From Acidobacteriia bacterium AH_259_A11_L15 (GTDB lineage Bacteria; Acidobacteriota; Terriglobia; Acidiferrales; 2-02-FULL-67-57), in the NCBI GenBank assembly GCA_027717655.1, contig JALLOH010000005.1, positions 284 to 64,283 on the forward strand: a DNA stretch of 64,000 nt, read 5' to 3'. Positions within the stretch are counted from its first letter, which is position 1. The number at the start of each line of letters is the position of its first letter. Both the position numbers and the translations under genes were made by a program. The notes under the pieces were generated by a model, which saw only the letters and a program-made list of their open reading frames with translations, was not told the DNA's origin and ran no database searches. Of the stretch, positions 1-38,136 are shown piece by piece.

Positions 1-395
1 CGGCGAAACAGCTCCTCCACCTCCGCATCGGGCAGCCTCACCGGCAGGATGCTGTTCTTGAAGCAGTTGCTGTAGAAGATGTCAGCGAAGCTGGGGGCGA
101 TGACCGCCCGGAAGCCGTAGTCATGCACCGCCCAGGCGGCGTGCTCGCGGCTGGAGCCGCAGCCCAGGTTGGCCCGCGTCAGGAGAATCGAGGCTCCCCG
201 GTAGCGCGGCCGGTTGAGCACGAACTCCGGGTCGGGCACGTCGCCGTCCTGGTAGCGCCAATCGTAGAAAAGGAACTTGCCGTAGCCTTCGCGGGTCAGC
301 AGCTTGCAGAACTGCTTGGGGACCATCTGGTCGGTGTCCACGTTCACCCGGTCCAGCGGCGCCACCAGCCCCGTGTGTTTGACGAACGGCTTCAT
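1..395 (-). CDS. leuD: 3-isopropylmalate dehydratase small subunit (C-terminus cut by window edge)
   Basis: Own minus-strand translation from the ATG at 395-393: [48 protein letters not shown]...[21 protein letters not shown]. These are typical LeuD motifs. The gene lies directly downstream of leuC. It is absent from the ORF track because it runs off the window. Confidence 0.85.
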
Positions 396-481: not shown

Positions 482-1909
482 TTATTCACTTCCATCGACA
501 TCCCACTCGCGGATGTCCACGAAGTGACCTTCCAGCGCCGCGGCGGCCGCCATCAGCGGGCTCACCAGGTGCGTGCGCCCCCCTTTGCCCTGGCGGCCTT
601 CGAAGTTGCGGTTCGAGGTGGAGGCGCAGCGCTCGCCGCTGGGCAGGATGTCGTCGTTCATCCCGATGCACATCGAGCAGCCCGCGTCCCGCCACTCGAA
701 CCCGGCCTCGAGGAAAATCTTCTCCAACCCTTCCTTCTCCGCCTGCGCTTTCACTTGCATCGAGCCGGGCACCACCAGCGCCTGCTTCAGCGATTTGGCT
801 ACCTTCTTGCCGGCCACGACCCGCGCCGCCGCCCGCAGGTCCTCAAGGCGCGAGTTGGTGCAGGAGCCGATGAAGACGCGGTCGAGCGGGAGGTCCATCA
901 GCCGCGTCCCCGGCGTCAGCCCCATGTAGTCGAGCGCCCGCTCCACCCCCCGGCGCTCGACCCCGTCAGCGAACTGGCTGGGGTCGGGAACTTTCCCGGT
1001 TACCTCGGTGACCATCCCGGGGTTCGTCCCCCAGGTGACCTGCGGGGCGATTGCCTCCGCCCGCAGCTCCACCACCCGGTCGTAGGTCGCTCCCGGGTCG
1101 CTCGCCCACGTCTTCCACCGCTCCACGGCTTCCTGGAAATCCTGGCCCCGGGGCACGAACGGCCGGCCTTCGAGATAGGCGAACGTCTTCTCATCCGGCG
1201 CCACCATCCCGGCGCGCGCGCCCCCCTCAATCGACATGTTGCAGACGGTCATCCGCCCTTCCATCGACAGGGCGCCGATGGTCTCTCCGGCGTATTCGAT
1301 CACGTGCCCGTTGCCCCCGGAGACGCCGATGGTCCCGATGATGGCCAGGATGACGTCCTTCGCGGTCGTGCCCTTGCCCCGTCTGCCGTTCACCCGAATC
1401 AACAGCGTCTTGGACTTGAACTGTTGCAGGCACTGGGTGGCCAGCACGTGCTCGACATCGCTGGTGCCGATGCCAAAGGCCAGGGTGCCGAAGGCCCCGT
1501 GCGTCGAGGTGTGGCTGTCGCCGCAGACGATGGTCTGCCCCGGCTGGGTGATGCCCAGCTCCGGCCCGATGATATGCACGATGCCCTGGTTGTGGCTGTG
1601 CAGGTCGAACAGCCGCACGCGGGTCTCCCGGCAATTCCGCGCCAGGGCCTCGAACTGCCCGGCGGCGTCCTGGTCGAGAATCGGGAGGTGCCGGTTCTTG
1701 GTCGGCACCGAGTGGTCCATCACCGCGAAGGTCAGGTCCGGCCGGCGCACCTTGCGGCCCGCCGCCTTCAGGCCGGCGAAGGCCTGTGGCGAGGTGCCTT
1801 CGTGGATGAGGTGGCGATCGATGTAGATCAGCGAGGGCCCGGGCTGCTCCTGGACGAGGTGCGCATCCCAGATTTTTTCATACATTGTCCGTGCTGGCAT
1901 CGCCCTCAT
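482..1909 (-). CDS. leuC: 3-isopropylmalate dehydratase large subunit
   Basis: 475-aa ORF containing [11 protein letters not shown]..., [21 protein letters not shown] and [11 protein letters not shown] (aconitase-family Fe-S ligand motifs). Three in-frame ATGs (1909, 1900, 1885); the true start is uncertain. Confidence 0.95.
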
Positions 1910-2047
1910 AGACCGCCCGCTGGAAGCATAAATACGGACGTGAATTTTTATTATACCGCGCCGGCGCGGGCGCGGCCAGCCTCAGGAAAGCCCTGTCATG
2001 CTAAACAGAGCGAAGCCTCGCAGCGGAGATTCTTGGCTCCGCCCGCC

Positions 2048-2860
2048 TCAGCCCAGGATTTCCAGCACCGCCTGGTTCCACCCCGCGGGGCCGGGTGCCG
2101 CGCGGCGCGCCTGGGGAAGGTTCTCCAGCAGCTCGGGGTGGTGGCGGCCGTTAGGTCTGGCCACCACCACGGGGACGTCCACCACTTTCAAAAAGTCCAC
2201 GTCATTGGGGCCGTCGCCCAACCCCACGCTGCGCACCTGGGTGTAGTGCTGGCGGTAAAGATCCAGCAGGCGGGCCACCGCCGCGCCCTTGTCGTTCGTC
2301 CCCATCAAATGGAAAAAGCGCCCGCCCTGCCGCCAGCTCAGGCCGCGCTCGCGCAGCCAGGTGAAGAACCTCTCCTTCTGCTGCGGCGTGCCTTTCTCCA
2401 CCAGGAAAGGCTCGTCGAACTCGCGGTGCCGGGCGAGCTTCGCCGCCGCCAAGGAGAGCCCACAGAGCTTGGCCACTTCTCTATCCTTCATCTGGTTGAA
2501 GCCGCGCACGCTGGCGCCGCTGGTCTTGGCGGCTTCGTCGAGCGCCCGCACCAGCTTCCGGTAATCGAGGCCCAGCTCCAGCACGTGGAACTCCGCCTCC
2601 GTCCGCGCGTTGGACAGCGGAAAGGGGAAGTAGTTGCGAGGGACGTAGACGGCGCCGCCGTTCTCCGCCACGAAGGGATGAACGTTGCCCAACTCCTCTC
2701 GCAGCGGCAGGATTTCCGCCCGGGTCTTGCTGGTGCAGAACACCAGCGGAATCCTGCGCCGCCGCAACTCCTCCAGGGCCGGACGGGCCGGCCGGTAGGA
2801 ATAGGTCTTGTGATCGAGTAGGGTGGCGTCGAGGTCGGTGAAAACGATTAGGTGGCCCAT
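2048..2860 (-). CDS. HAD-IIB mannosyl/glucosyl-3-phosphoglycerate phosphatase (MpgP/YedP family)
   Basis: LIVFTDLDATLLD (DxDxT motif), CTSKT, GLGDGPNDVDFL. Overall resemblance to E. coli YedP/MpgP from memory. Adjacent to a GpgS-like glycosyltransferase. Confidence 0.75.
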   Translation of the reverse strand: MGHLIVFTDLDATLLDHKTYSYRPARPALEELRRRRIPLVFCTSKTRAEILPLREELGNVHPFVAENGGAVYVPRNYFPFPLSNARTEAEFHVLELGLDYRKLVRALDEAAKTSGASVRGFNQMKDREVAKLCGLSLAAAKLARHREFDEPFLVEKGTPQQKERFFTWLRERGLSWRQGGRFFHLMGTNDKGAAVARLLDLYRQHYTQVRSVGLGDGPNDVDFLKVVDVPVVVARPNGRHHPELLENLPQARRAAPGPAGWNQAVLEILG

Positions 2861-2911
2861 GGCTCCCTAGAGGTGCCGCACCCCGGTTTGGGTCTCGGGC
2901 ATGGCCGGGAC

Positions 2912-4120
2912 TCAGGCGTTGTCTTCCTCCACGGCGAGGGCCAACTGCGCAAGGAAATCCGGCACCGCGGCCACCACGCGGTTCCAGTTCGGAATCAGCG
3001 GCGCGCCCAGAGGGTCCTTCAAGAATTCCTCCGCCGCCAGGGCGATGGCCCGGGCGAAGGCCTGGACGGCCACCTCCTCCTCATGGCGGTCGAATTCCAG
3101 CCCGTTGATCATGGCATCGGCGTGGTAGCGCGTGATGGTGTCTTCGGCCGTGCGCACATACTTGGTCTGCACCGTCCGGAAGCTGCCTTCCGAGAGAACC
3201 GCCCCTTCGGCGGCCACCATGCGCAAGAGGGTCTTGGCGATGTCCACGGTCATCCGCATCAACCCTTTCTGGGCGTCGCCGGCGGAAAGCGCCTGGTGCT
3301 TGTGCTCGTAGTTCTCCGCCAGGTCCACCTGGCAGATGCGCTTCAAGGAGCAGTTGCGGTAGATCTCGGCCAGTACTCCCACCTCCAGGCCCCAGTCGGC
3401 GGGGATGCGGTTCACCCGCGCTAGCTCCGCCTCCATGGCGAACTCCCCCGCCAGCGGGTAGCGGAAGCTGTCCAGGTACACCAGGAAGGGGAGGTGGCCG
3501 TAAATCTCCTTCAAGGAGCGCACGAAGGGGGTGACGAACAGCCGGGTCACCCGACCGTGCAGCTTGGTGGTGTAGCGGGCGTAGAAGCCCTTGCAGAATT
3601 CGAAGTCCACGTTGGGGTTGGCGATGGGGTGGTAGAGCCGGGCCAGCAGCTCCCGGGTGTAGTTGACGATGTCGCAGTCGTGCAGCGCGATTTTCTTCGC
3701 CTGCCCGCTGGCCAGCACGTACCCGTAGGCGATCCAGCAGGCCCGGCCCTTCCCCGGCGGCCCCGGGGTCAGGTCGTTCTCCTCCAGCGTCTTGAACAGG
3801 CGCTGCACCCGCTCTCCGTCGTTCCAAATCACGCGCACGTTCCGGTGAATGCCGCTCAGGCGCTCCTTGACCTCCGCGCACTGTTTCTCGTCCGCACTCC
3901 CCAGCGTGAGGACGATTTGCTTCAGGTAGGGCACCTTGGAGAGTTCCCGCAAGATCACCGTCATGGCTTCCGTCTCAAACTCCGCGTAAAGCGCCGGCAA
4001 GACCAGGGCCATGGGCGCGGTGCGGGCAAAGCGGACCAACTCGCCCTCGATCTCCTCGATCCGCCGGCTGCCCAAGCGGTGCAGGGTGGCCACCATGCCG
4101 CTCTGGAAGAAATCGGACAT
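2912..4120 (-). CDS. Glucosyl-(or mannosyl-)3-phosphoglycerate synthase-like glycosyltransferase (GT81/GpgS-like)
   Basis: 402 aa. PGKGRACW...IALHDCDI...KGFYAR...HGRVTRLFVTPF...YPLAGEFA...DWGLEVG follows the GpgS (Rv1208-type) motif order as remembered. Sugar specificity cannot be determined from sequence. Confidence 0.65.
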   Translation of the reverse strand: MSDFFQSGMVATLHRLGSRRIEEIEGELVRFARTAPMALVLPALYAEFETEAMTVILRELSKVPYLKQIVLTLGSADEKQCAEVKERLSGIHRNVRVIWNDGERVQRLFKTLEENDLTPGPPGKGRACWIAYGYVLASGQAKKIALHDCDIVNYTRELLARLYHPIANPNVDFEFCKGFYARYTTKLHGRVTRLFVTPFVRSLKEIYGHLPFLVYLDSFRYPLAGEFAMEAELARVNRIPADWGLEVGVLAEIYRNCSLKRICQVDLAENYEHKHQALSAGDAQKGLMRMTVDIAKTLLRMVAAEGAVLSEGSFRTVQTKYVRTAEDTITRYHADAMINGLEFDRHEEEVAVQAFARAIALAAEEFLKDPLGAPLIPNWNRVVAAVPDFLAQLALAVEEDNA

Positions 4121-4263
4121 CTAAGCGTTCGCCCTCCGTGGCTCCGTTGCCACTACCCGCCGGGCGTTGAAGTTCACTCCAGGGAGGTAGCAGGTGGGCA
4201 ACTCAAGACCGAAGAGCGATTGTAGACGCGCCCGCGCGGACAAGTCAAACCTTTCCTCCGCCT

Positions 4264-4827
4264 TCATGCTTTGGGGGGAATGTCCGGCAGCACCTTGCCG
4301 GTGCGCCAGGCGTAGTGGATGCCGGAGGCTAGGGTGATCGCCACCGTCAGCCCGATCAGCACGTCCTTGGCCCAGACCACCGCCCCGTGCGGCCACACCC
4401 TGGCCAGGACCACCACACCCACGGTCAGCACCTGGGTCACCGTGCTGATCTTGCCGTAAACGCTGGACGCGAACGGCCGCCACCCGGCCCCGATGATGAT
4501 GGCCAAGGCCACGGCTAGGATGAGCACGTCCCGCCCCAGCACCAGGACGCTCACCGTCCAGGGAACGTCGCCCTGGACTGCCAGGATGACGAAGGCGGTC
4601 GAAAGCAGCAACTTGTCGGTGATGGGGTCGAGATAGGCGCCCAGGGGCGTGCGCTGCTTCAGCGCCCGCGCCAGCAGCCCGTCCAAGGCGTCGCTCAAGC
4701 CCGCGGCCAGCAGCACCGCCAATCCCCAGCCATAGCGCTGGTTAAGAACCGCAATGACGAAGAAAGGAATCAGCGCCAGCCGCACCAGCGTGAGCTGGTT
4801 GGCCAGGGTGAAGAACTGCCGGCTCAT
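4264..4827 (-). CDS. pgsA: CDP-alcohol phosphatidyltransferase (PgsA-like)
   Basis: 187-aa multi-TM protein. DALDGLLARALKQRTPLGAYLDPITDKLL matches D-x2-DG-x2-AR-x8-G-x3-D-x3-D. Confidence 0.8.
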   Translation of the reverse strand: MSRQFFTLANQLTLVRLALIPFFVIAVLNQRYGWGLAVLLAAGLSDALDGLLARALKQRTPLGAYLDPITDKLLLSTAFVILAVQGDVPWTVSVLVLGRDVLILAVALAIIIGAGWRPFASSVYGKISTVTQVLTVGVVVLARVWPHGAVVWAKDVLIGLTVAITLASGIHYAWRTGKVLPDIPPKA

Positions 4828-4855
4828 CGGAGGGGCGGCCCGCCGGGGCGGCGGC

Positions 4856-5176
4856 TTAGGGCTCGGCCTCGGTCATCGCGGCCAGGTACTCCAGCAGGCT
4901 GCGACCCACCTGGCGCTCGAAGGTTTGCGACAGCGAGGGGATCGACCCCTGGGGCTCGTCCAGGGCGATGCGCTCCAGCCGCTGCATGGGATAAAAAATC
5001 GTGGCCAGCCCCACCAGGTCTTCGGCGTCCCTCTTCACCTGGCGGACGAAGTCGTCGAAGGAGTTGAGGTCAATCCCGCGCACGGTCACCCCCGCCTGGG
5101 TCAGCGCCACCAACTGGCCCCACACCCGTTCCTTGGGCTCGTGCAAACTGACGACGACAATGGAATTCAACTCCAT
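4856..5176 (-). CDS. Hypothetical protein
   Basis: 106-aa ORF with normal-looking composition, packed between pgsA and scoB on the same strand. No recognisable motif. Confidence 0.5.
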   Translation of the reverse strand: MELNSIVVVSLHEPKERVWGQLVALTQAGVTVRGIDLNSFDDFVRQVKRDAEDLVGLATIFYPMQRLERIALDEPQGSIPSLSQTFERQVGRSLLEYLAAMTEAEP

Positions 5177-5197
5177 CGGCCTGCCTACATTTTCCCC

Positions 5198-5866
5198 CTA
5201 CACCTGCGTTTCCTTCAAGTCCTTTGCCACTTTCAACGTCGGCTCGGTCACTTCCTGGACTTTCTCCGGCGTGGCGCCCGGGGCCACTTCTTTCAGCAGC
5301 AGGCCCGCCCGGGTCACTTCGATCACCGCCAGCTCGGTCACGATCAGGTCCACCACCCCGACGCCGGTCAGGGGCAGCGTACACTGCTTGAGGATTTTGG
5401 GCTTGCCCTTGGCGGTGTGCTCCATGGCGATGATCACCCGCTTGGCCCCGGCCACCAGGTCCATCGCCCCGCCCATCCCCTTGACCATCTTGCCGGGGAT
5501 CATCCAGTTGGCCAGGTTCCCTTTCTCGTCCACCTGCAAGGCGCCCAGGATGGAGAGGTCAATGTGCCCGCCGCGGATCATCCCAAAGGAGTCGGCGCTG
5601 GAAAAGAACGCCGCCCCGGGAATCTCCGTCACTGTCTCTTTGCCGGCGTTGATCAGGTCGGCGTCCTCTTCACCCTGGTAGGGATACGGCCCGATGCCCA
5701 GCAGCCCGTTCTCGGATTGCAGGATTACGTCCATCCCTTTGGGGATGTAGTTCGCCACCAGGGTGGGCAGGCCGATGCCCAGGTTGACGTAGTAGCCGTC
5801 GCGCAGCTCCTGCGCCACCCGCTTGGCAATCCGCTCCCGAATCCCCTCGCCACTCTTCTGTGCCAT
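5198..5866 (-). CDS. scoB: 3-oxoacid CoA-transferase subunit B
   Basis: [17 protein letters not shown] (catalytic Glu motif), GGAMDLV. Confidence 0.9.
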
Positions 5867-6026
5867 CTTTCCCCTCTGTGTTGTCTCTGTGTCCTCTGCT
5901 TGCCCTCAGCGAAGTCGAAGGGCGCCTCTGCGGTGAAAATTCCTTTTCCTCTACTCCTTTGCCTCTTGTGCTTCCTTTGCCCCCTCTATTTCCTGCCTCC
6001 GTGCCTCTCTCCCTGGCTGCCTCCTG
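5867..6026. repeat. 160-bp CT-rich / REP-containing spacer inside the scoA-scoB operon
   Basis: Contains ccctcagcgaagtcgaaggg (5903-5922, REP core) followed by ctcctttgcctcttgtgcttcctttgcc, which closely resembles ctcctttgcttcctctgcttcctctgcc inside tyrA (about 7620-7650). Confidence 0.55.
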
Positions 6027-6728
6027 CTAGGCCGCGCGCTGGCGCGTGGTGCGCCGCTCGATGCGCTTCTCGTAGTCTTTCCCCTGAAAAATGGCATCCA
6101 CGAAGATGCCCGGGGTGTGGACGAAATCCGGGTCGAGCTCCCCCACGTCCACCAGCTCCTCGACTTCGGCGATCACAGTGTCGGCCGCGGTGGCCATCAC
6201 CGGATTAAAGTTCCGCGCCGTCTTTCGGTAGATAAGATTTCCCCACCGGTCCCCCTTCCAGGCCTTGATGAAAGCATACTGAGCCCGCAGCGGCTTCTCC
6301 AGCACGTACATCTTGCCGCCGATCTCCCGCGTCTCCTTGCCTTCGCCCACCGGGGTGCCGTAGCCGGTGGGGGTGAAGAACCCGCCGAGGCCCGCCCCGG
6401 CCGCCCGCATGCGCTCGGCCAGCGTGCCCTGGGGATTCAACTCCACTTCCAGCTCCCCGCTCAGCACCTGCTGCTCGAACAGCTTGTTCTCCCCCACGTA
6501 AGTGGCGATCATCTTTTTCACTTGCTTGGTCTGCAGCAGCAGCCCGATCCCGAAGTCATCCACCCCGGCGTTGTTCGATATGACCGTCAGGTTCTTGACG
6601 CCTTTCCGCCGCACCGCCGCGATCAGGTTCTCCGGGATGCCGCACAGCCCGAAGCCGCCCATCATGATGGTGGCCCCGTCCTGAATCGCCTTGATGGCTT
6701 CCTCCGCGTTCGCCACCCGCTTGTTCAT
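6027..6728 (-). CDS. scoA: 3-oxoacid CoA-transferase subunit A
   Basis: [44 protein letters not shown]. Confidence 0.9.
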
Positions 6729-8095: not shown

Positions 8096-9115
8096 CTAGC
8101 CAATGGTGCGTTCAACCGCCGGGGCGATGATGCGGAGCTGCTGCATCAGCCGGGCGAATTGCTCCGGGTAGAGCGACTGCGCCCCGTCGCTCAGCGCCTT
8201 CTCCGGCTCGTTGTGCACTTCAATCAGCAGGCCGTCGGCGCCCGCCGCCACCGCGGCCCGGGCCATGGGCGGCACTTTGTCCCGCCGCCCCGTCCCCTGC
8301 GAGGGGTCCACCACCACCGGCAGGTGGGAAAGTTTCTTCACCACCGGGATGGCCGCCAGGTCGAGCGTGTTGCGGGTGTAGGTCTCGAAGGTGCGGATGC
8401 CTCGTTCACAGAGAATCACGTTGTAGTTCCCGCCCTGCATCAGGTACTCGGCCGAGAGCAACCACTCCTCGATGGTGGCCGAAAGCCCGCGCTTGAGCAG
8501 GATCGGCTTTTTCGTCTTGCCCAGCTCCTTCAGCAGCACATAGTTCTGCATATTGCGGGCGCCCACCTGGAAGATGTCCACCAGCTCCTGCATCATCTGC
8601 ACCTGAGTATGGTCCACGATTTCGCTCACCACCAGCAGGCTGTTCGCCTCGGCCGCCTCCCGCATCATCTTCAGCCCGTCGGGGCCCAGCCCCTGGAAGC
8701 TGTACGGCGAGGTGCGCGGCTTGAAGGCGCCGCCCCGCAGCACCTTCGCCCCGTGCTCCCGAACCAGCTTGGCGATGGCCTGGATCTGCTCCGGATTTTC
8801 CACTGAGCACGGCCCGGCCATCATAATCACTTCCCGGCCGCCCACCTGCACGCCCCGGCCGACCTCCACCACCGTGCCTTCCGGTCGGAAGCTGCGGCTG
8901 GCCAGCTTGTAAGGGGCGCTGATGCGCACCACTTCGCGCACGCCCTCAAGCAGCTCGATGTCCCGGGTGTCGAAGTCCAGCCGCGCCCCCACCGCCCCCA
9001 GCACCGTGTGCCGGACGCCGGTGGAGCGGTGGACGCCGAACCCCATCCCCACCAGGCGCTCGATGACGTGCTGGATCTGCTCCTCAGTGGCTCCCTCGTG
9101 CATCACCACGACCAT
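8096..9115 (-). CDS. 3-deoxy-7-phosphoheptulonate (DAHP) synthase, type I-beta with an N-terminal ferredoxin-like regulatory domain
   Basis: 339 aa. N-terminal MVVVMHEGATEEQIQHVIERL (ACT/FL-like), then GPCSVEN, LRGGAFKPRTSPYSFQGLG, VDPSQG. Confidence 0.9.
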   Translation of the reverse strand: MVVVMHEGATEEQIQHVIERLVGMGFGVHRSTGVRHTVLGAVGARLDFDTRDIELLEGVREVVRISAPYKLASRSFRPEGTVVEVGRGVQVGGREVIMMAGPCSVENPEQIQAIAKLVREHGAKVLRGGAFKPRTSPYSFQGLGPDGLKMMREAAEANSLLVVSEIVDHTQVQMMQELVDIFQVGARNMQNYVLLKELGKTKKPILLKRGLSATIEEWLLSAEYLMQGGNYNVILCERGIRTFETYTRNTLDLAAIPVVKKLSHLPVVVDPSQGTGRRDKVPPMARAAVAAGADGLLIEVHNEPEKALSDGAQSLYPEQFARLMQQLRIIAPAVERTIG

Positions 9116-9147
9116 AGCCGACCGCCTCTCCTAGGTGCCCCGCCTTT

Positions 9148-9264
9148 GTCATTCTGAGGAGCCCTGCCTGCCGCAGGCAGGCCGAAGGGCGACGAAGAAT
9201 CTCAGCCGTGCCTCAAGCAATCGGTTGAGATTCTTCGCCCCGAACCTTCGGGGCTCAGAATGAC
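9148..9264. repeat. Nested palindromic REP/MITE-like element
   Basis: Outer arms gtcattctgag (9148-58) / ctcagaatgac (9254-64). Inner arms gaagaatctca / tgagattcttc. Internal hairpins tgcctgc-c-gcaggca and ccccgaa-cc-ttcgggg. Lies between DAHP synthase and chorismate mutase. Confidence 0.7.
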
Positions 9265-9290
9265 AAGCTAAAGCTCCTATTTTTCATCGC

Positions 9291-9566
9291 CTAAGATTTT
9301 TCCTTGTAGGTCTCCTGTTCCACCGCGCGCGCCTCGTCCAGGATGCGCTCGAACAGCCGCTTCAGGGCGTCGTTGCCCAACGGCCCGCCGTTCATCCGCT
9401 GCACCCGCTCCAGGATCTCTCGCTCGCGCTCGGGCTGATACACCGCTTGGCCGGCTTGCCGTTTCAGCTTGCCTGCCTCGGCGGCGCAGCGCGAGCGCTC
9501 GTTGAGCAGCTTCACCAACTGCTCGTCCAGCTCGTCAATCCGCTTCCGCCAATCCTTGATGTCCAT
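9291..9566 (-). CDS. Chorismate mutase (AroQ class)
   Basis: MDIKDWRKRIDELDEQLVKLLNERSRCAAEAGKLK...ILERV is the typical AroQ helix pattern. The ORF could extend to a TTG at 9605; the ATG at 9566 was chosen from N-terminal homology. Confidence 0.8.
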   Translation of the reverse strand: MDIKDWRKRIDELDEQLVKLLNERSRCAAEAGKLKRQAGQAVYQPEREREILERVQRMNGGPLGNDALKRLFERILDEARAVEQETYKEKS

Positions 9567-9617
9567 ACTGGATCGCCGGGCTCGCTCCTTACCCGATTCA
9601 ACCAATCAACGATTCAA

Positions 9618-10493
9618 CTATCCGACTGCTTTGAGTTCCCGCACCAACTGCGCCGCCGCTTCCAGCCCCGCCTCCCCGTGCCCGGCCTTCTCGCAACATT
9701 CTATCAAGGCGCTGCCCACCACCACCCCGTCGGCAATCCGTTCCAAGGCCGCCACCTGCTCGCGCCGGGCGATGCCAAAGCCCACCGCCACCGGCAGACG
9801 CGTCAGCCGCCGCAGCCGCTTGACCTGCGCCCGGATTTCTCCGCTCACCTCCGTCCGCGCTCCCGTGATGCCCCGCCGGGCGATTAGATAGATGAAGCCG
9901 CGCGAGAGCCGCGCGAGCGCCCGCAACCGCTGCTTGGTCGAAGTCGGCGCCGCCAGGAACACCGTGTCCAGCCCCTGCCGCCTGGCCGCGCCCACAAACG
10001 GCCGCGCTTCCTCCGGGGTCAAATCGGTGATCAACACCCCGTTGATGCCCGCGGCGGCAGCGCGCTCGGCGAAGCGCTCCGCCCCCATCTGCAGCACCGG
10101 GTTGTAGTAGCTGAAGAGCACCAGCGGGACGGGAGTCTTCCGCCGCAGCCGCCGCGCCAGCTTCAGCACCTCGGACAACGTTGTCCCGGCTTTCAGCGCC
10201 CGCTCGCTCGCCCGCTGGATGACCGGGCCGTCGGCGATGGGGTCGGAGAAGGGCACGCCCAGCTCGATCACGTCTGCCCCTGCTTCGGCCAGCCGCACCA
10301 CCAAGTGCTCGGTGAACTTCAGGTCGGGGTCGCCCGCCGTTACGTAGGCCACCAGCGGCAAGGGCTGGCGCCGCCGGCGGCGAAACGCCGCCCGCAGCCG
10401 CCCCCGGGTTGGGGCGCGCTCGTTTGTCCTCGCCGCCCGGCGAGCGCGGCTGGCGCGCTTCCCTCGCTTCCGGGGTTTCTTCTTTCGGGCCAT
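9618..10493 (-). CDS. trpA: Tryptophan synthase alpha chain (with a polybasic N-terminal extension)
   Basis: YVTAGDPD, ELGVPFSDPIADGPVIQ, GFGI. The first 30 or so aa are MARKKKPRKRGKRASRARRAAR. Confidence 0.9.
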   Translation of the reverse strand: MARKKKPRKRGKRASRARRAARTNERAPTRGRLRAAFRRRRRQPLPLVAYVTAGDPDLKFTEHLVVRLAEAGADVIELGVPFSDPIADGPVIQRASERALKAGTTLSEVLKLARRLRRKTPVPLVLFSYYNPVLQMGAERFAERAAAAGINGVLITDLTPEEARPFVGAARRQGLDTVFLAAPTSTKQRLRALARLSRGFIYLIARRGITGARTEVSGEIRAQVKRLRRLTRLPVAVGFGIARREQVAALERIADGVVVGSALIECCEKAGHGEAGLEAAAQLVRELKAVG

Positions 10494-22612: not shown

Positions 22613-23932
22613 TTGGGGGCGGTGCGCCAAGCCGGTGACCGGTGCGGGGGCAAGACCTTGGAGCCCGGGAGGCCCCTAGAAGTTCGTCGGGTCCCTCGCC
22701 GGGGCCGTTTCCTTCCCTATTTGGCACTGCTCCTGGCTCCCCTGTCCGTGGCCGCCCAATCGGCCCCCGCCCAGCGGGCGGAAGCGATGGAGCGGGCGCG
22801 AGCGCACGTGGAAGCGCAGGAATACGGGGCGGCGCTGCACATCTACCGCGAGTTGGCGGCGGAGAATCCGCGGGACTTCGAGGCGCGCATCTGGGTGGCG
22901 CGGCTGCAGAGCTGGCAGGGAAACTACCGGGAAGCGGAACAAGGCTACCGCCAGGTCTTGCGCGACGCCCCGGGGAACTTCGAAGCCGAGCTGGGTCTGG
23001 TGGACGTCCTGAGCTGGCAGGGCCGCTATGGGGAAGCCGAAGAGCGCTTGCTGGGACTGGAAGCCGAGTATCCGGAGGACACCGAAGTCCTTCTGCGCCG
23101 GGCCCGGCTGCATCGCTGGCGGGGCCGGCGGAAGCAAGCACTCGCCACTTACGAGCGGCTGTTGGCTCTGGAGCCCGGCAACCAGGAAGCGCAGGAAGCC
23201 CTCGCCGCCCTGCGCTCGGAGACCCGCTACCAACTGGCGGCGGGCTACTTCTTCGAGGAATTCGACTTCGCCGGGGAAACCAACGGGCAGTTCGTCGAAC
23301 TGCTCTACCACGACCTCGACCGCGTCTGGCTGCTGGGCCGCTTCCAGTTCCAGAACAAGTTCGACGAGAACAACACCCGCTACACCCTGGGGGGGTCCTA
23401 CCGCTTTTTTCGCCGCACCTGGGTGCGCGCCGAAGCCAGCCTGGCGCCGCCGAACGACCGGGTGATCGCCAACCAGGACTACACCCTCGAAATCACCCAG
23501 GGGCTGCACCCGCGGCTGGCCGCCGGGGGCAGCTATCGCTTCCTGAACTTCCGCGACGCCGACGTGCAGGTGGTGACCGCGCTGGTCAACTGGACGCTGC
23601 GGCGGGACCTGCGGCTGTACGTGCGCTACTCGCCGGCGCGTACTATGTTCGATTCCACCGGCCAGAGCGTCTGGAACCAGAACGGCTTCGCCCGCCTGGA
23701 GTGGGACGCCCACCGCAAGGTCAGTCCCTACGTCTTGTTCGCCGTCGGTTCGGAGAGCTTCGCCGGGCTGACGGCCGAGCAGTTGGGCCGCTTCGCCGCG
23801 CAAACCTGGGGCGTGGGCGCCGAAGTCCGGGTGACCAACTTGCAGGGCTTCCGCGTCGGCTACTATTTCCAGAGCCGCACCCGCAACAACCGCCAGCAGG
23901 GCTTCAGCGTCTCCTACTTCCTGCGGTTCTAA
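22613..23932 (+). CDS. TPR-repeat protein fused to a YaiO-like outer-membrane beta-barrel
   Basis: Signal peptide (LALLLAPLSVAAQ), at least 4 TPR-like repeats (ARLQSWQGNYREAEQGYRQVL...), then alternating beta-strand sequence ending in YFLRF (terminal Phe). Start uncertain (possible TTG at 22658). Confidence 0.7.
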   Translation: MGAVRQAGDRCGGKTLEPGRPLEVRRVPRRGRFLPYLALLLAPLSVAAQSAPAQRAEAMERARAHVEAQEYGAALHIYRELAAENPRDFEARIWVARLQSWQGNYREAEQGYRQVLRDAPGNFEAELGLVDVLSWQGRYGEAEERLLGLEAEYPEDTEVLLRRARLHRWRGRRKQALATYERLLALEPGNQEAQEALAALRSETRYQLAAGYFFEEFDFAGETNGQFVELLYHDLDRVWLLGRFQFQNKFDENNTRYTLGGSYRFFRRTWVRAEASLAPPNDRVIANQDYTLEITQGLHPRLAAGGSYRFLNFRDADVQVVTALVNWTLRRDLRLYVRYSPARTMFDSTGQSVWNQNGFARLEWDAHRKVSPYVLFAVGSESFAGLTAEQLGRFAAQTWGVGAEVRVTNLQGFRVGYYFQSRTRNNRQQGFSVSYFLRF

Positions 23933-24037
23933 CCGGCCGCGGTAGCCCCTTTCAGCGTTTCAAAAACAAATGGTTTTGATCCAACAACTAGCGTACGCGT
24001 ACGTTGATTAGAAAGCCGACCGACCTACGAAGGACGG

Positions 24038-24379
24038 CTACTTGTTCCTGCGAGGGGGCAACCGCAGGGGAACGTCCGGGTTGTTCTTGTTAAAAGCGGC
24101 CACGATTTTGGGGGGGGTGGTCTTCTTCGGATTGTAAGTCACCTTGATGCCGTGCGTCTCGGGGTCCACCCGAGCGTCCTCGACGCCCTCCACCCGCAGC
24201 AAGCCCTGCTCAATGATGCCGTGGCTCGCGGAGCACCCTTCCGGGAGTTCCCCTTTGGCCAATTGCACGATGAGGGTAGCGAAGGGTTCTTCGGACTCCT
24301 TGCTTTTCTCCTGGCCCAGCGCGGGGCTGGGCGAGCCGAGCAAGAGTGCGCTCAATGCTAGTAGACCTAGTTCCCTCAT
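24038..24379 (-). CDS. Secreted small protein with an HMA-like (ferredoxin-fold) domain lacking CxxC
   Basis: Signal peptide, then ATLIVQLAKGELPEGCSASHGIIEQGLLRVEGVEDARVDPETHGIKVTY resembles the heavy-metal-associated fold pattern but has a single Cys plus His. Confidence 0.5.
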   Translation of the reverse strand: MRELGLLALSALLLGSPSPALGQEKSKESEEPFATLIVQLAKGELPEGCSASHGIIEQGLLRVEGVEDARVDPETHGIKVTYNPKKTTPPKIVAAFNKNNPDVPLRLPPRRNK

Positions 24380-24414
24380 GGCCTGTCCTCCTCCGGCTGG
24401 TTCGCTGCCGGAAG

Positions 24415-25290
24415 CTAGAGGGGCATCTTTTCCCCTCGGCGGAGCCGGTCCAGGAACTCCTGCACTCCATACACCGGACGCCCTTTAAGTTCCGAGTGGT
24501 GTTCCAGCCATTTGTGCACTTCCTCTTCGGAACTGAAGAGGTTGTTGATTCCTCACCCGCCACCCAGGAAGACCTTGGTGGTGGCTGGGTCGAGTTCCTT
24601 CACCCGCCCGTTCTCGAACACCAGGTGTATGCGCTCGCCGCTGTACTGCGAGGCATCTTCAACGGTAACTTCCTTGTCATTCCATTTCGCGTTGACCAAC
24701 GCGATGAAGTCCATCGCTCAATAAGTGTCGAGTTTCTTCACCCCCTGCACATTCACCCGGTGGTACATGAAGGTGATTCGCATCCCGCCTTCCCAGTTCA
24801 CGTAGCGAGGCTTCGCCATCCGGTAGCCGACCCCGCCGGCGAGCCCGTCCGGGTGGATAATCCCGAAGCGCTCCAGGGTCGCCAGACCGGCGGTGATTGC
24901 CTCCGGGGACACCTGGACGGCTGGGGCCAGCTCGGCCAACGAAGGTGCCGGACGTTGCTCGCGCTCGGCCGAGCTCAGGTGGCGCGCAATCAGCTTCTCG
25001 GTGGGGGTCAGCGAAACTGTCTCCCAGCCAAAGATGCGAATCACGCGATGGACTTCGGGATGTTCGCGGATGTAGTCGCCCAGGGCGTAGCGGTCTTCCA
25101 AGGTGTAATCGCCGCCGAGGATCTCCATGGCCAGGTCGATGCCGGTCACGGCGGTGTCTTGGCCCCAGTTGGCCACCAAATAGTCGAGCACCTCTTGTTG
25201 CTTGGCGGTGAGCGAGCCGGCCCGGGTAGCCGCCACTACCGCCAGAGCCAACACCACCGTCGCCAGTGTGGCCAGGATTCGTCTGCGCAT
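24415..25290 (-). CDS. MerB-family (alkylmercury-lyase-like) secreted protein with two in-frame UGA codons; candidate selenoprotein
   Basis: ORF 24718-25290 ends in TGA (24720-24718). The same frame stays open through ...DTY-U-AMDFIALVNAKWNDKEVTVEDASQYSGERIHLVFENGRVKELDPATTKVFLGGG-U-GINNLFSSEEEVHKWLEHHSELKGRPVYGVQEFLDRLRRGEKMPL-TAG (stop at 24417-24415). The second TGA is at 24555-24553. U-A-M-D parallels MerB C96-A-L-D99, the second U parallels C159, and NLFSS..W parallels HFFAS..W. Both UGAs are followed by hairpins. Confidence 0.7.
24522..24541 (-). other. Hairpin 11 nt downstream of the second UGA (candidate bacterial SECIS)
   Basis: The RNA reads UGA-GGAAUCAACAA-CCUCUUC-AGUUCC-GAAGAGG: a 7-bp perfect stem with GU in the loop. 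Confidence 0.5.
24691..24717 (-). other. Hairpins immediately downstream of the first UGA (candidate bacterial SECIS)
   Basis: The RNA reads UGA-GCGAUG-GACUU-CAUCGC, overlapping CGCGUU-GGUC-AACGCG. The GGUC apical loop is like the one in the E. coli fdhF SECIS. The loop lies about 20 nt from the UGA. Confidence 0.5.
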
Positions 25291-25298
25291 GGTCCCTC

Positions 25299-25898
25299 CT
25301 ACTCCTTCTGCCAGAGTAGCTTCTCGATGTCCGCTTCGATCTCAGCCCGTCGCTTCGGGTATTGCCCAGTGTACTTCTGGTAGATTTTGCCGTCGCGGGT
25401 GACTAGGAAAGCGGTGGGGAAACCCTCGACCCCGAAGGCCTCTTCAATCTCTTCGTTGCCGACGACAACCGGGTACTCGATTTTGAAATCGTATTTCTCA
25501 ATCTCTTCTTGGATGTCGCTCACCCAGCCCGATTGCACCGTGATGCCGAGGACGGTGAACCCTTGCTGGTGGTAGCGCTGCTGCAACCTGTTCCAGTGAG
25601 GGATGTCTTCCACACAAGGTTTGCACCAGGTGGCCCAGAGGTCGATCAGCACCACCTTGCCGGCTAGCGACTGGGAGGAAAAGCCGCTGCCGTCCAGCAT
25701 CTTAAGCTCAAAGCTCGGCAGGGGCGGCAGCCGCGCCGGTTCGGCGGAGAATAGTCCCTCAGCCGATGCAGCCAGCCCCACAGCTACTAGCACTGAGAGG
25801 GCAGCGAAGAGCGGCTTCGACCGTGTGCAGCCTAGCATCATGCTCTTCATTAGACGTTTGCGTTGTCTATGCGTGAGCGGGGGCGCTTTGTCAAGCAC
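25299..25898 (-). CDS. TlpA/ResA-like periplasmic thiol:disulfide oxidoreductase
   Basis: LIDLWATWCKPCVEDIP (WCxxC thioredoxin motif) with an N-terminal anchor or signal sequence. The start may be the internal Met at 25850. Confidence 0.85.
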   Translation of the reverse strand: MLDKAPPLTHRQRKRLMKSMMLGCTRSKPLFAALSVLVAVGLAASAEGLFSAEPARLPPLPSFELKMLDGSGFSSQSLAGKVVLIDLWATWCKPCVEDIPHWNRLQQRYHQQGFTVLGITVQSGWVSDIQEEIEKYDFKIEYPVVVGNEEIEEAFGVEGFPTAFLVTRDGKIYQKYTGQYPKRRAEIEADIEKLLWQKE

Positions 25899-26057
25899 TT
25901 TTGCGGGTCAGCCGTGGAGTCGGGCCGTGCCGAAATCATCTGTTTTGTGGCTGGGAAAACAGGCAGCCGGCCCGGGTAGGGCAAGGCTTTACGCCTTGCC
26001 GTTGGTAGGGAAGCTTTCTTTGGGGGTGAAACGAAGCGGCAGGGGATGGTTCGACTT

Positions 26058-26096
26058 CGCTCCCTTCGGCTGCGCTCCCTTCGGCTGCGCTCAGGG
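26058..26096. repeat. REP-like tandem (15-nt unit x2 plus REP core)
   Basis: cgctcccttcggctg repeated at 26058-72 and 26073-87, ending in cccttcggctgcgctcaggg (26077-96). Confidence 0.6.
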
Positions 26097-26256
26097 TCTT
26101 CGCTGCGCTTCGACAGGGCAGGCACCACAAGTAAACCCCTCCCCTACAATCCTTCCAGAACCACACCCGCTCGAACCGCGAGCAGGGCTTCGGGATTTCT
26201 TACTTTTTCCGCTTCTAGTGGGGACGCCTACTCAGAAAGAGCGCCAGCTTCTTGCG

Positions 26257-28041
26257 CTATCTTTCCTGGTTCGGGGAGGGCAAAGAGAGAAAGAGGCGGT
26301 CGCCCTCCAGGCGCGTTCTGACCGAGAGGGGCACCCCCGCAGCATCCAAAACCAGTGGTGACGGACTGTTGGGCAAGTGTTCCAGCACAAGAGTTTGTCC
26401 GGGAGGAATTTCTTGCCGCTCCAAGTTCAACACGATGGTCGTGCCCTCGCCGCTCCCTGTCCGCAGCGTGGGTCTCAGCCGGGCACGGTGCCGCCAGAAA
26501 CGGGCCAGACTGCCGACGTCTCCAATCCAGATGTCCTTTCCGCGATGGGCCATGATGAGTCGTCGTTCGGTCTCCAGCTTGTGGGTAACGTCCGTCGGAT
26601 GAATCAGCAAGCACGTTGAAGCACCATTCTCCGCATTGGCTTCTATGATCTCAGCCCAGGTGCGCAAGACTTGCTCTTCCCTCCCCGGGGTCAGAAAGTC
26701 GCGGGAGTCATCCAAGGTAACGGGAACGACCACGATGCGGCTTTGCTCGGCCCCCAATTTTCTTTCACGAAATCCAAAGTAGGGGAAATTCGTCAATACC
26801 CACTGCGCGGAGACGCTGGAATCGTAGGTGTAGCCGGTCTCTTCGAGCACGCGCAGGAGGGCACTCGGATAGCGCAGGTAGCCAGCTCGGAAGCCTGCGG
26901 TCTCTTGACCCAAGTCCCGGTCCAGCAGTTGTTTGCTCACTAGCACTTCGCCGAAGAGGGTGGGGGTGGCGGGCTCATAGCTCGAGGGATCGGCGGGTGC
27001 GGAGCCGACCGGGAATTCGTCGAAGGTCAGGGAGTGGCTGACGGAGTGGGATTCAACAGCAAAGCCCAACTCTTTCACTCGCCGCAGCCAGGCGATGCGT
27101 CCGGGCGTGTAGTAGCCAATGTCGGTTTCATCCCGGAAATACTTGGTGGTAACGAAAAAGGTACTGCGTACGCCGAGCGACGCCTCCATCTGGGCGAAGA
27201 GGAATGAATTGCGAAAGGACTCCCGGGCGTCCACGTCGTGAGAAAGCACCAGAGCCGTCCGGTGCCCTTCGGGAACTGTGTGCACCAGCAGGAAAGGATG
27301 CACGTTGTCTTCATAGAGCCCGCGCAGAATCAAACGGAAGACGTCCCCGGAGGGCTCAAAGGAGTTGATCCAGCGACGGGCGGCCTGGAAGCTGCGCGCC
27401 AGCTGAGGCAGCAGAGTTGTTTCTTTGAATCCTATGCCCAGGGCATAGGCGAGTCCGCGGCCATAGGGATGGACCGTGAAGGCGACGGCGCCGTTCTCAT
27501 ATCGGGCGAGCACTTTCGTGCGCCGGCCAGGAACGTATTCGGTGGACCAGACAGTCTCCGAATACAACGCCGGGTCGCCCAGCGAGACCGTGCGTTCCTG
27601 GGGGCGGTTGAGATAGCGCAAAGCCGGGTCCGCAGCCGGGGCGAAGCGGACGCGGAAGTTCGTGCGGCTGGTCGTGGCCCCCTCCAGCCCGAATAGCGGA
27701 AAGAAGTTGCTCCCTTGCACCTGGGTGGCAAGCAACACGCCGCCCCGCTCCACGTAGGCATAGAGCGCCTCTTGCTCGGCCGGGGTCACTTCGGTGTTGA
27801 ACAGGATTCCGCCAACCAGCACGAGCGGATAGCGCGTGGCTACTTCCACTTCGGCAGTGGTCCGAAACGGGATTCCCAGCAGCTCCAGACAGTTGCGAAC
27901 TGCCAATTGTTCTTGAAGGGCGTCGCGGCTGGAGCCGATCTCCAGGACCGCCACGCCCCAGTCGAAATCTGCGGGAGCGGCATGGAGACCGGAGACCCCC
28001 AGAAACAGCCAGACGAAAATAGCCGCGAGCTTGCGTGTCAT
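26257..28041 (-). CDS. Secreted polysaccharide deacetylase (CE4/NodB-like) with an N-terminal accessory domain
   Basis: Start at MTRKLAAIFVWLF (signal peptide) with an ATGA overlap on the upstream gene. LSHDVDA...ESHSVSH...LIHP follows the NodB motif order. Confidence 0.7.
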   Translation of the reverse strand: MTRKLAAIFVWLFLGVSGLHAAPADFDWGVAVLEIGSSRDALQEQLAVRNCLELLGIPFRTTAEVEVATRYPLVLVGGILFNTEVTPAEQEALYAYVERGGVLLATQVQGSNFFPLFGLEGATTSRTNFRVRFAPAADPALRYLNRPQERTVSLGDPALYSETVWSTEYVPGRRTKVLARYENGAVAFTVHPYGRGLAYALGIGFKETTLLPQLARSFQAARRWINSFEPSGDVFRLILRGLYEDNVHPFLLVHTVPEGHRTALVLSHDVDARESFRNSFLFAQMEASLGVRSTFFVTTKYFRDETDIGYYTPGRIAWLRRVKELGFAVESHSVSHSLTFDEFPVGSAPADPSSYEPATPTLFGEVLVSKQLLDRDLGQETAGFRAGYLRYPSALLRVLEETGYTYDSSVSAQWVLTNFPYFGFRERKLGAEQSRIVVVPVTLDDSRDFLTPGREEQVLRTWAEIIEANAENGASTCLLIHPTDVTHKLETERRLIMAHRGKDIWIGDVGSLARFWRHRARLRPTLRTGSGEGTTIVLNLERQEIPPGQTLVLEHLPNSPSPLVLDAAGVPLSVRTRLEGDRLFLSLPSPNQER

Positions 28042-37647: not shown

Positions 37648-38136
37648 CTACTTCCTCTTTATGAACCAGCCCGGGTATGAATCCGGATCGTCGGTGAGTC
37701 CCGCCTTCACCGGGTTCAGAAACATGTAGTTCAGCTTCTCTTCGAGCTCCGCTTGGTCGCGCACAATCCGGTCGAGAGACTCATCTTGCCATACCCTTCC
37801 GTGACTCCCCCGTCGTTGATTGAGGCGGCGGGCTGTTGCCCCTTTTATGCCTTTCATAGCTCGGCTCAGAGAAACACCTTGATTCGGTCGGAGCAGAAGA
37901 TGGACATGATCAGGAAGGACTACAGCCGCAAGCAGTTCATATAATTCGGGGTCGCCAGAGATGATTTGATCTCGTACCGACAGAATTTCCTCGGTTGTTA
38001 ACTGGCTTGTGGCTATGCGAAAAGTCACAAAATAAGTTGCCCCTTCCAAAGTCCAATGGGGTAAGCGCCGCCTTGTTATCTGGAGTTTCGGCTCATCCAC
38101 TGTCCTGATCGCCCTCATAATTAGTGGGGCAGGCAC
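37648..38136 (-). mobile_element. REP-associated tyrosine transposase (RAYT, IS200/IS605 Y1 HUH family)
   Basis: RRRLPHW...TYFVTFR, LPDHVHLLL (HUH), YMFLNPVKAGL (catalytic Tyr region). Low-GC gene flanked on both sides by CAGAC/GTCTG-stem hairpins. The start may be the ATG at 38118. Confidence 0.85.

Follow-up and report, generated by a model that had tools for sequence, protein, structure and literature searches.

A TlpA-like thioredoxin paired with a predicted exported MerB-fold protein carrying two selenocysteines in Acidobacteriota

The closest described systems to the locus treated here are the organomercurial lyases MerB and MerB2 (Pfam PF03243; EC 4.99.1.2; PDB 3f0o, 3f2f, and 5c17) and the selenoprotein SaoL (NCBIfam NF040728). 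The mercury of R-Hg+ is coordinated in MerB by Cys96 and Cys159, and Asp99 gives a proton to the carbon that leaves; the resulting Hg(II) is held on two thiolates until the cysteine pairs of MerA or an excess of thiol take it over (PMC8261052). SaoL is a cytosolic MerB-like selenoprotein of about 213 amino acids, encoded in the nine-gene, ABC-transporter SAO locus of strict anaerobes; it has a single selenocysteine (Sec, U) in a C-U dipeptide at the second metal-binding site and a cysteine at the first, and its database copies are truncated at the TGA (bioRxiv 10.1101/2022.07.06.499078). Its authors, Haft and Gwadz, propose a selenium-assisted organometallic chemistry (bioRxiv 10.1101/2022.07.06.499078). 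A 2026 inventory of prokaryotic selenoprotein families names SaoL alone under MerB (PMC13188914), and a mer survey based on the Cys96/Asp99/Cys159 triad reported no MerB in Acidobacteria (PMC8261052). This work concerns a 64,000-nucleotide stretch of contig JALLOH010000005.1 (positions 284 to 64,283, hereafter the window) from Acidobacteriia bacterium AH_259_A11_L15, in which three minus-strand genes encode, in order of transcription, a TlpA-like thioredoxin, a MerB-like protein, and a protein with a heavy-metal-associated (HMA) fold. From its sequence, the middle gene is a genuine two-selenocysteine gene. That it yields a translated di-Sec MerB-fold protein, functionally coupled to its TlpA-like partner, is to our mind nearly certain; the chemistry that this protein may perform is a more tentative matter, and is discussed below.

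The reading frame of the MerB-like gene is crossed by two in-frame TGA codons, at residues 191 and 246. An earlier note, made from the letters of the window without database searches, had described a UGA-containing MerB homologue; the homology and the in-frame TGA stand, the number of such codons being two and not one. An alignment of ten sequences shows no variation at U191, U246, or Asp194 or in the surrounding motifs, and all relatives whose frame was followed in the DNA beyond the first TGA have a TGA at both columns, down to an identity of 28%. The relatives with both TGAs comprise closer ones (68–76% identity), those of Bryobacterales (56–58%), and a distant clade (28–35%); they are known from loci that lie mainly in metagenome-assembled genomes (MAGs) of Acidobacteriota and in metagenome contigs, and such loci do not count as independent samples. 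The database homologues, 58 in number, all have a length of about 190 amino acids and cover just 55–65% of the query, because gene callers halted at the first TGA. In all, 92 related clusters emerged when 1.8 billion representatives were searched exhaustively without a profile; these were sorted by the end point of the database protein, about 50 sequences being checked directly. Among them, P0067, P0079, P0100, and P0142 are Cys/Cys homologues that run across both sites. About 14 clusters, including P0060, P0078, and P0089, are Cys/Sec forms that end exactly at the second site, and P0060 continues through the UGA to give a protein of 307 amino acids. About 14 further clusters end at the first site.

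Each UGA is followed by a SECIS-like hairpin (SECIS, selenocysteine insertion sequence). Over eight sequences compared with RNAalifold, the first hairpin keeps its seven pairs, three of them through compensatory double changes (C-G to G-C, G-C to C-G, and C-G to U-A), with a constant GGUC loop, and the amino acids encoded by this region shift from IA..A to LL..S. The second hairpin also has seven pairs, one compensatory and six that never vary, and its loop is GGUC in seven of the eight sequences. In E. coli, the SECIS of fdhF likewise has GGUC as its apical loop. A scan of positions 23900–26300 with Rfam gave chance-level matches only and no bacterial SECIS model. The protein sequence is under purifying selection beyond each TGA: between the two codons and after the second one, dN/dS against most relatives is 0.05–0.26, similar to or below the values upstream. 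The exception is L042, with 0.565 for residues 192–245 (possibly an alignment offset), and two segments of L023 are saturated at synonymous sites.

A further possibility is that the middle gene is a pseudogene, which the earlier note also kept in sight, or a set of three small open reading frames (ORFs), with the TGAs as true stops. It draws on the fact that gene callers split or truncate this gene everywhere, and on the search for tRNA-Sec, for which neither ARAGORN, run on the whole genome, nor the Rfam model RF01852 found a gene in the source MAG (2.6 Mb in 939 contigs, 75.6% complete). The best tRNA-Sec candidates turned out to be tRNA-Ser and tRNA-Leu. The missing tRNA, which also counts against a translated selenoprotein, is read as an assembly gap and not as a true absence. 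The genome does have selA, selB, and selD, with scores above the cut-offs (544.6, 349.1, and 373 bits, respectively), and selD itself has a TGA. Together with TGAs at identical columns in very divergent relatives, the purifying selection after each of them, the covarying hairpins, and the cysteines that homologues have at the same columns, this contradicts gene decay and makes it extremely improbable. An alternative genetic code, with TGA read as Trp or Gly, was ruled out, since neighbouring genes end in TGA, cysteine is what aligns at the two sites, and both SECIS-like hairpins and selABD are present.

The MerB assignment is supported at the levels of profile, motif, and predicted structure. 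The protein matches Pfam MerB with 43.8 bits (gathering threshold 27) over residues 176–271, a segment that spans both TGAs, and a six-frame search of the genome with the same model gives 29.8 bits at this gene and no other MerB-family gene. In a phmmer alignment to MerB2 (PDB 5c17), U191 and U246 fall on the two metal-binding catalytic cysteines, DTY-U-AMDF being aligned with FAW-C-AIS, and GGG-U-GINNLFSSEE with GGT-C-KQIHYFSS. The MerB catalytic triad is therefore not present to the letter: in the ten aligned members the aspartate is invariant and both cysteines are UGA, a set of residues that is chemically analogous. Structure prediction, suggested by the earlier note as a check, returned a MerB fold. 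The AlphaFold2 (AF2) model, built on the ten-sequence alignment, has a mean predicted local distance difference test score (pLDDT) of 80 and a predicted template-modelling score (pTM) of 0.79, and the top 11 PDB matches found by Foldseek are all MerB or MerB2 (E-values from 5e-10 to 7e-7, 200–226 columns, 17–19% identity). The global, target-normalised template-modelling (TM) score is 0.42–0.48 with a root-mean-square deviation (rmsd) of 13–15 Å; the modest score and the high deviation may both come from the way in which the winged-helix and catalytic domains are turned towards each other in the model. Ahead of the MerB-like part, the model places a signal helix and also an additional domain, helical and some 70 residues long, with no counterpart in MerB. 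No model in NCBIfam release 20.0 claims the protein, and its score against the SaoL model is 18 bits for a cut-off of 140.

The gene that precedes the MerB-like gene encodes a thioredoxin-fold oxidoreductase, as previously noticed from its WCKPC motif. From ATG 25850 the protein opens MKSMMLGCTRSKPLFAALSVLVAVGLAASA and contains WATWCKPC. It matches the Pfam families Redoxin (63.9 bits), AhpC-TSA (57.5 bits), and also Thioredoxin. Its top NCBIfam matches stay below the equivalog cut-offs (ResA, 84.2 against 170 bits; TlpA, 56.9 against 230; DsbE, 39.9 against 123), and no NCBIfam match to SaoT was obtained. Wherever the upstream side of a Sec/Sec locus is visible, the MerB-like gene directly follows such a TlpA-like gene, the two being separated by a few to about 40 nucleotides; the pair was seen in the window, in L023–L028, L031–L034, and L039–L044, and as degraded copies in L035 and L036. 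A TlpA-like gene is also found upstream of one Cys/Cys relative. The exception is the exported Cys/Sec protein P0060, where the upstream genes encode a rhodanese and an outer-membrane-like protein and no thioredoxin. In genome G117, a single frame (L030 982–2535, identical to L047) joins a signal peptide, a TlpA domain with WAVWCPPC, and a MerB-like domain with both TGAs, followed by a C-terminal extension of about 80 amino acids of no assigned family; cluster P0076 is the TGA-truncated database product of this fusion. Because of this Rosetta-stone fusion, the functional coupling of the two proteins is supported, and because the fused MerB-like part has no signal peptide of its own, so is their shared extracytoplasmic location.

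Export was predicted with a home-made heuristic that asks for a hydrophobic 10-mer in the first 45 residues, preceding basic residues, and small residues at −3/−1. All three window proteins pass it, as do 55 of 58 homologue N-termini, the three failures being truncated or borderline starts by their look; a cytoplasmic MerB used as control fails. In the TlpA-like protein, the predicted signal or anchor covers approximately residues 1–30, and three K/R precede the hydrophobic segment. The HMA-like clusters also pass wherever the N-terminus is intact, and P0153, whose N-terminus is missing, has no basic residue. The proposal that each of the three products has a signal or anchor sequence thus finds its support in this heuristic, to which the natural fusion of G117, with its exported TlpA domain ahead of the MerB-like one, can be added. 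Judging from their sequences, most Cys/Sec relatives have no signal-like N-termini and are probably cytoplasmic. Twin-arginine translocation (Tat) was ruled out, since the RR pair of the window protein is not kept in homologues, and export by the general Sec pathway appears more likely.

The third gene has a narrower distribution. Its product matches Pfam HMA with 30.1 bits (gathering threshold 24.8) and the MerP model with 20.5 bits (cut-off 92.55), and its AF2 model shows the order beta-alpha-beta-beta-alpha-beta. The top Foldseek matches of this model include the metal-binding domains of ATP7B, MerP (PDB 1osd), and CopZ, with a target-normalised TM score of 0.78 and an rmsd of 2.6 Å for MerP. 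A ferredoxin-fold, HMA-like protein with GCSASHG had been read from the sequence at the outset, and both the Pfam match and the predicted fold agree. The form G-C-S-A-[ST]-H-G replaces the GMxCxxC motif of HMA proteins in all six clusters (6/6) that the family comprises among 5.8 billion proteins, Cys49 and His53 being invariant. In all visible contexts (L040 and L042–L045), the HMA-like gene lies directly downstream of the thioredoxin and Sec-MerB pair. A tblastn search with the HMA-like protein against the distant loci of the pair gave no match, which rules out the trio as a unit conserved in the whole family. The three-gene module envisaged by the earlier note is accordingly conserved in one part: the pair of TlpA-like and Sec/Sec MerB-like genes recurs across the family, and the HMA-like gene is confined to the closest clade. 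The conserved functional unit is the two-gene pair, and the HMA-like gene is a clade-specific add-on. Within the phylum the MerB-like gene is patchy: 9 of 401 genomes match, G000 among them, and it is lacking from one complete genome that belongs to the same family.

The coordinates of the locus are collected in Table 1. They agree exactly with the gaps of 8 and 35 nucleotides and the common minus strand previously given for the three genes (24038–25898), and the three identities then assigned to the products hold by their Pfam matches. GGAGG-type ribosome-binding sites precede the MerB-like and the HMA-like genes.

Table 1. Positions in the window of the three genes and of their motifs, predicted elements, and domains (approximate values marked ~)
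Feature	Position	Strand	Remarks
TlpA-like gene	25299-25898	minus	ORF from GTG 25898; likelier start ATG 25850 (183 aa)
WCKPC motif	25614-25628	minus	residues 75-79 of the ATG form
MerB-like gene	24415-25290	minus	291 aa with TGA read as U; TAG stop 24415-24417
UGA codon 191 (Sec)	24718-24720	minus	at the MerB Cys96 position
Asp194	24709-24711	minus	at the MerB Asp99 position, +3 from U191
SECIS-like hairpin 1	24687-24704	minus	13 nt after UGA191; 7-bp stem, GGUC loop
UGA codon 246 (Sec)	24553-24555	minus	at the MerB Cys159 position
SECIS-like hairpin 2	24522-24541	minus	11 nt after UGA246; 7-bp stem, AGUUCC loop (GGUC in relatives)
MerB-like protein domains	residues: signal ~1-24; extra helical domain ~25-95; winged-helix ~96-160; MerB catalytic ~176-271
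HMA-like gene	24038-24379	minus	113 aa
GCSASHG motif	24218-24238	minus	residues 48-54; family form G-C-S-A-[ST]-H-G
Predicted signal peptides	residues: MerB-like ~1-24; HMA-like ~1-22		heuristic

These data describe an extracytoplasmic selenoenzyme module with a MerB-fold core. With regard to its chemistry, selenolates carry no proton at neutral pH, and their hold on mercury is tighter than that of thiolates. In addition, small-molecule mimics of MerB based on selones outpace the corresponding sulfur compounds in breaking Hg-C bonds (PMC11639659). From the invariant Sec/Asp/Sec set, this selenolate chemistry, and the selone mimics, a lyase-type enzyme of the cell envelope is proposed. By analogy with MerB, CH3Hg+ or another organomercurial would be held by the two selenolates outside the cytoplasm, the aspartate would protonate the carbon so that the hydrocarbon is freed, and Hg(II) would stay behind as a bis-selenolate. 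The TlpA-like partner might keep the selenols reduced in the oxidising envelope, strip Hg(II) through its CxxC in the manner of NmerA or MerP, or do both. In the clade of the window, the single-Cys/His HMA-like protein could act as a periplasmic carrier of a metal species such as CH3Hg+, because one thiolate suffices for a monovalent species.

An extracytoplasmic, selenium-based enzyme of the organomercurial-lyase type, served by a thioredoxin, is the best reading overall, and by analogy to MerB we consider it to have about an even chance of being right. The same balance applies to the broader proposition that the protein may cleave carbon-metal(loid) bonds in the manner of a lyase. Mercury as its physiological metal is somewhat less likely than this, and it is rather doubtful, if conceivable, that the pair (with the HMA-like protein in some lineages) carries out a selenium-dependent, MerA-independent demethylation of methylmercury in the envelope of soil and sediment bacteria. 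Lyase activity and substrate are, in all these statements, what we infer.

The neighbours in the related loci speak mainly for the handling of soft metals of the mercury type. Mercury-type genes (MerB, MerTP-like, MerR-like, and CsoR-like) are found within 6 kb of the pair in three of four clades. At L041 (72% identical), the genes that follow on the same strand encode a CsoR-family repressor, a cytoplasmic MerB (FTWCAVDTL and SFCKNVLFF; 190.2 bits against the NCBIfam MerB cut-off of 193), a MerT-MerP fusion, and a glutaredoxin with selenocysteine in a UxxC motif. In L042 and L043, this Sec-glutaredoxin and a small membrane protein resembling MerT are encoded immediately upstream, the gene of the latter standing just ahead of the Sec-glutaredoxin, thioredoxin, Sec-MerB, and HMA-like genes. 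The Bryobacterales locus L023 has, 1 kb off, a divergent regulator of the MerR family, a MerTP-like fusion, and a thioredoxin-like gene of the DF family. In the distant clade (f24; L049–L051), the genes within 0.1–5 kb encode another member of the MerB family, this one cytoplasmic, a regulator of the MerR family, a weakly MerT-like protein, and a CopZ-N Fe-S protein. The earlier suggestion of an extracytoplasmic system that processes organometal(loid) or C-S/C-Se bonds keeps, in view of this, its extracytoplasmic and soft-metal side, the neighbours being of the mercury type, and the C-S/C-Se side has found no support.

Some of these loci have further features. The MerT-like protein of L042 (at about 2874–3152, and also that of L043) gives a weak match to merT_RC607 (E-value 6.5e-6), and its gene has two adjacent in-frame TGA codons (at 2925 in L042) that would produce PW-UU-LLP at the place of the CC pair of MerT, a putative tandem selenocysteine. 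In Bryobacterales, a gene for a multi-pass membrane protein of 175 amino acids lies right after the Sec-MerB gene (L023 6893–7417; L024 and L025 6895–7422); it keeps the motifs PGCE and HHCPG and matches no Pfam or NCBIfam model. Its homologue on contig C939 of the source genome has a TGA at both of these cysteine positions, so that this group may represent a further, undescribed family of membrane selenoproteins.

Several observations weigh against the lyase reading, and some of them speak for other explanations. The scores of the MerR-like (124.5 against 150.85) and MerTP-like proteins (120.6 against 180) are best to mercury models and nonetheless below the curated cut-offs, for which reason the metal specificity of the mer-type neighbours is ambiguous, and the ZntR and CueR models score nearly as high as MerR on the MerR-like protein. 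About half of the loci, that of the window among them, have no metal gene nearby. The MerB-like protein itself is far below the NCBIfam MerB equivalogs (29.2 against 200 bits for NF033555; 24.6 against 193 for NF009710). The signal peptides, as said, are predictions of a heuristic. No DsbD/CcdA (PF02683) that could serve as electron source and no MerA above cut-off were found in the genome at its present completeness.

That no MerA was found is also a point for a different function, namely that of a trap or chaperone for soft metal(loid)s, in which a bis-selenolate would bind Hg(II), Cu(I), As(III), or similar species for sequestration or hand-over, the TlpA-like protein keeping the site reduced and no bond being cleaved. 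The release of Hg(II) from two selenolates, a step that the lyase reading needs, may indeed be hard, and the neighbours are more often transporters or chaperones (MerTP-like, CopZ-N, YHS, HMA-like) than enzymes. Furthermore, clusters P0077 and P0133 are thioredoxin fusions or fragments whose MerB-like domain has neither Cys nor Sec at the two sites (AVGSLPRYL and LLGGGGYDALF), so that, from the sequences, this domain can also occur in a non-catalytic form and a non-catalytic role is possible. However, the aspartate at +3 is invariant in 10 of 10 Sec/Sec members, and in MerB this residue is needed for catalysis and not for binding alone; two selenocysteines are a costly investment for a stoichiometric binder; and the whole MerB catalytic domain is kept. 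We therefore regard a pure trap as fairly unlikely.

The substrate might also differ, the same enzyme acting on an organoarsenical or on another organometal(loid) compound (of tin, lead, or antimony) in place of an organomercurial. In this sense, L039 (72% identical; 858–4333) has a PHO4-family transporter, an ArsM-like methyltransferase, and a radical-SAM protein (SAM, S-adenosylmethionine) directly upstream on the same strand. This set, another point against mercury, resembles the clusters for organoarsenical biosynthesis, the methyltransferase scoring 355 bits with the arsinothricin-type ArsM model NF040538 (cut-off 500). Haft and Gwadz give the same caveat on the substrate for SaoL (bioRxiv 10.1101/2022.07.06.499078). 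Such ars-type company is nevertheless found at one locus, against mer-type company in three of four clades, and no arsR, arsC, acr3, or arsP was noticed among the annotated loci. We know of no C-As lyase with a MerB fold, which counts against an arsenic substrate. ArsI, the known C-As lyase, is a dioxygenase. A non-mercury substrate is, all considered, less probable still than a trap.

Finally, the protein could be a redox enzyme of the periplasm that works through a selenol/diselenide couple on a non-metal substrate, such as a reductase or isomerase acting on an envelope component, with electrons from the TlpA-like protein and the MerB fold as a mere scaffold. Prokaryotic selenoproteins are mostly redox enzymes (PMC13188914), the partner to which the protein is strictly paired is a thiol-disulfide oxidoreductase, many loci are without nearby metal genes, and in the distant clade the operon is headed by a pair of extracytoplasmic function (ECF) sigma factor and anti-sigma factor. 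On the other side, the conserved residues are exactly the metal-binding and proton-donating triad of MerB, the recurrence of metal-handling neighbours in several clades would be unexpected, and the third gene of the window clade has the fold of a metal chaperone. Consequently, this explanation is quite improbable, below the two preceding ones. The lyase-type enzyme is the reading that we retain.

In the distant clade, the genes for the ECF sigma factor and the zf-HC2 anti-sigma factor lie directly ahead of the pair (L049 6028–7556, with equivalents in L048, L050, and L051), which suggests control by an envelope signal. In the source genome, one MerTP-like gene is found on contig C939, a few kilobases from selD. 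The contig (L046) holds at 2990–6160 a cluster of metal-related and selenoprotein genes, with selD at 9005–9961. The cluster encodes a MerT-MerP-like fusion, an Fe-S metallochaperone of the CopZ-N-terminal type that matches NF047645 above its cut-off (135.7 bits), a YHS-domain protein, and a CsoR-like repressor, together with a glutaredoxin-like selenoprotein (4101–4334; PG-U-MFC) and a membrane protein of about 187 amino acids with two in-frame TGAs (PG-U-E at 5610 and HG-U at 5676), which also has a shorter paralogue.

The surroundings of the trio in the window (a suf operon, a tetratricopeptide repeat (TPR) protein with a YaiO-like barrel, a polysaccharide deacetylase, and a Wzy-like gene) give no clue to the function of the module. 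This TPR protein is encoded by the convergent plus-strand gene at 22613–23932; its C-terminal part is a YaiO-like barrel of the outer membrane with F as the last residue, and no tie between the gene and the module was seen. Upstream of the thioredoxin gene, an intergenic repeat of 60–110 nucleotides (about 26037–26147) belongs to a dispersed element with 94 blastn matches over the contigs of the genome and a further copy in the window near 37700; it resembles a repetitive extragenic palindromic (REP) element or a miniature inverted-repeat transposable element (MITE). A promoter and terminator scan found no sigma-70-like promoter at the locus, and the terminator that it predicted at 24522–24541 is the second SECIS-like hairpin seen from the opposite strand. 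The base composition gave no island signature.

Confirmation of the proposed function would make this the first enzyme of the MerB type outside the cytoplasm, and the first with an all-selenium metal-binding pair. It would be a candidate for methylmercury degradation in organisms without a classical mer operon, and a natural test case for comparing selenolate with thiolate chemistry at the Hg-C bond. Should demethylation in the envelope be true, it would offer an unrecognised enzymatic route for the environmental degradation of methylmercury described as 'mer-independent', the mercury finishing as a selenolate or selenide-type species or going to MerT-like importers. Whatever the substrate, the annotation is corrected for a family of about 90 clusters at 50% identity, many of them Sec/Sec or Cys/Sec. 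The family escapes surveys because gene callers truncate each member at its first TGA, and surveys based on the catalytic triad miss the Sec/Sec proteins because they require Cys96, Asp99, and Cys159.

With respect to the described systems, the TlpA-like protein shares the thioredoxin fold, the WCxPC motif, and the N-terminal signal or anchor with oxidoreductases of the TlpA/ResA/CcmG type that attend one dedicated envelope client. Like them, it adjoins its presumed client, to which it is once fused; unlike them, that client is a MerB-fold selenoprotein, and not a cytochrome or a copper chaperone. The HMA-like protein has the fold of the carriers MerP, CopZ, and NmerA and is, by the heuristic, exported like MerP, whereas one Cys and one His stand in place of their GMxCxxC pair.

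The MerB-like protein has in common with MerB and MerB2 the catalytic fold and the winged-helix domain before it, it places Sec/Asp/Sec at the positions of Cys96, Asp99, and Cys159, and genuine MerB, MerT-like, and MerR-like genes recur near its relatives. It differs in its predicted signal peptide (heuristic), in the extra N-terminal domain of about 70 amino acids, and in an identity of 17–19%, and its partner is a TlpA-like thioredoxin and not, as for MerB in the mer operon, MerA. The distinction from the classical cytoplasmic mer operon that the earlier note had drawn is upheld by the signal-like N-terminus, by the search of the 75.6%-complete genome, which found no MerA above cut-off, and by the annotation of the window, in which no merA, merR, merT, or merP is present. 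The likeness to SaoL lies in the MerB fold, the Sec at the second metal-binding position, and the truncation at the TGA. In contrast to SaoL, the protein described here has Sec at both sites (LDTY-U-AMDF and GGG-U-GINN), a prediction of export, and another partner, and it is surrounded in the window by suf, TPR/beta-barrel, and polysaccharide genes and not by an SAO locus. The published selenoprotein lists that were checked do not hold the Sec/Sec MerB-like family, SaoL being the sole MerB-like selenoprotein found in print. In summary, the MerB fold is already known, as is the notion that a relative of MerB may bear Sec, and the double selenocysteine, the predicted export, the extra domain, and the obligate TlpA-like partner are new.

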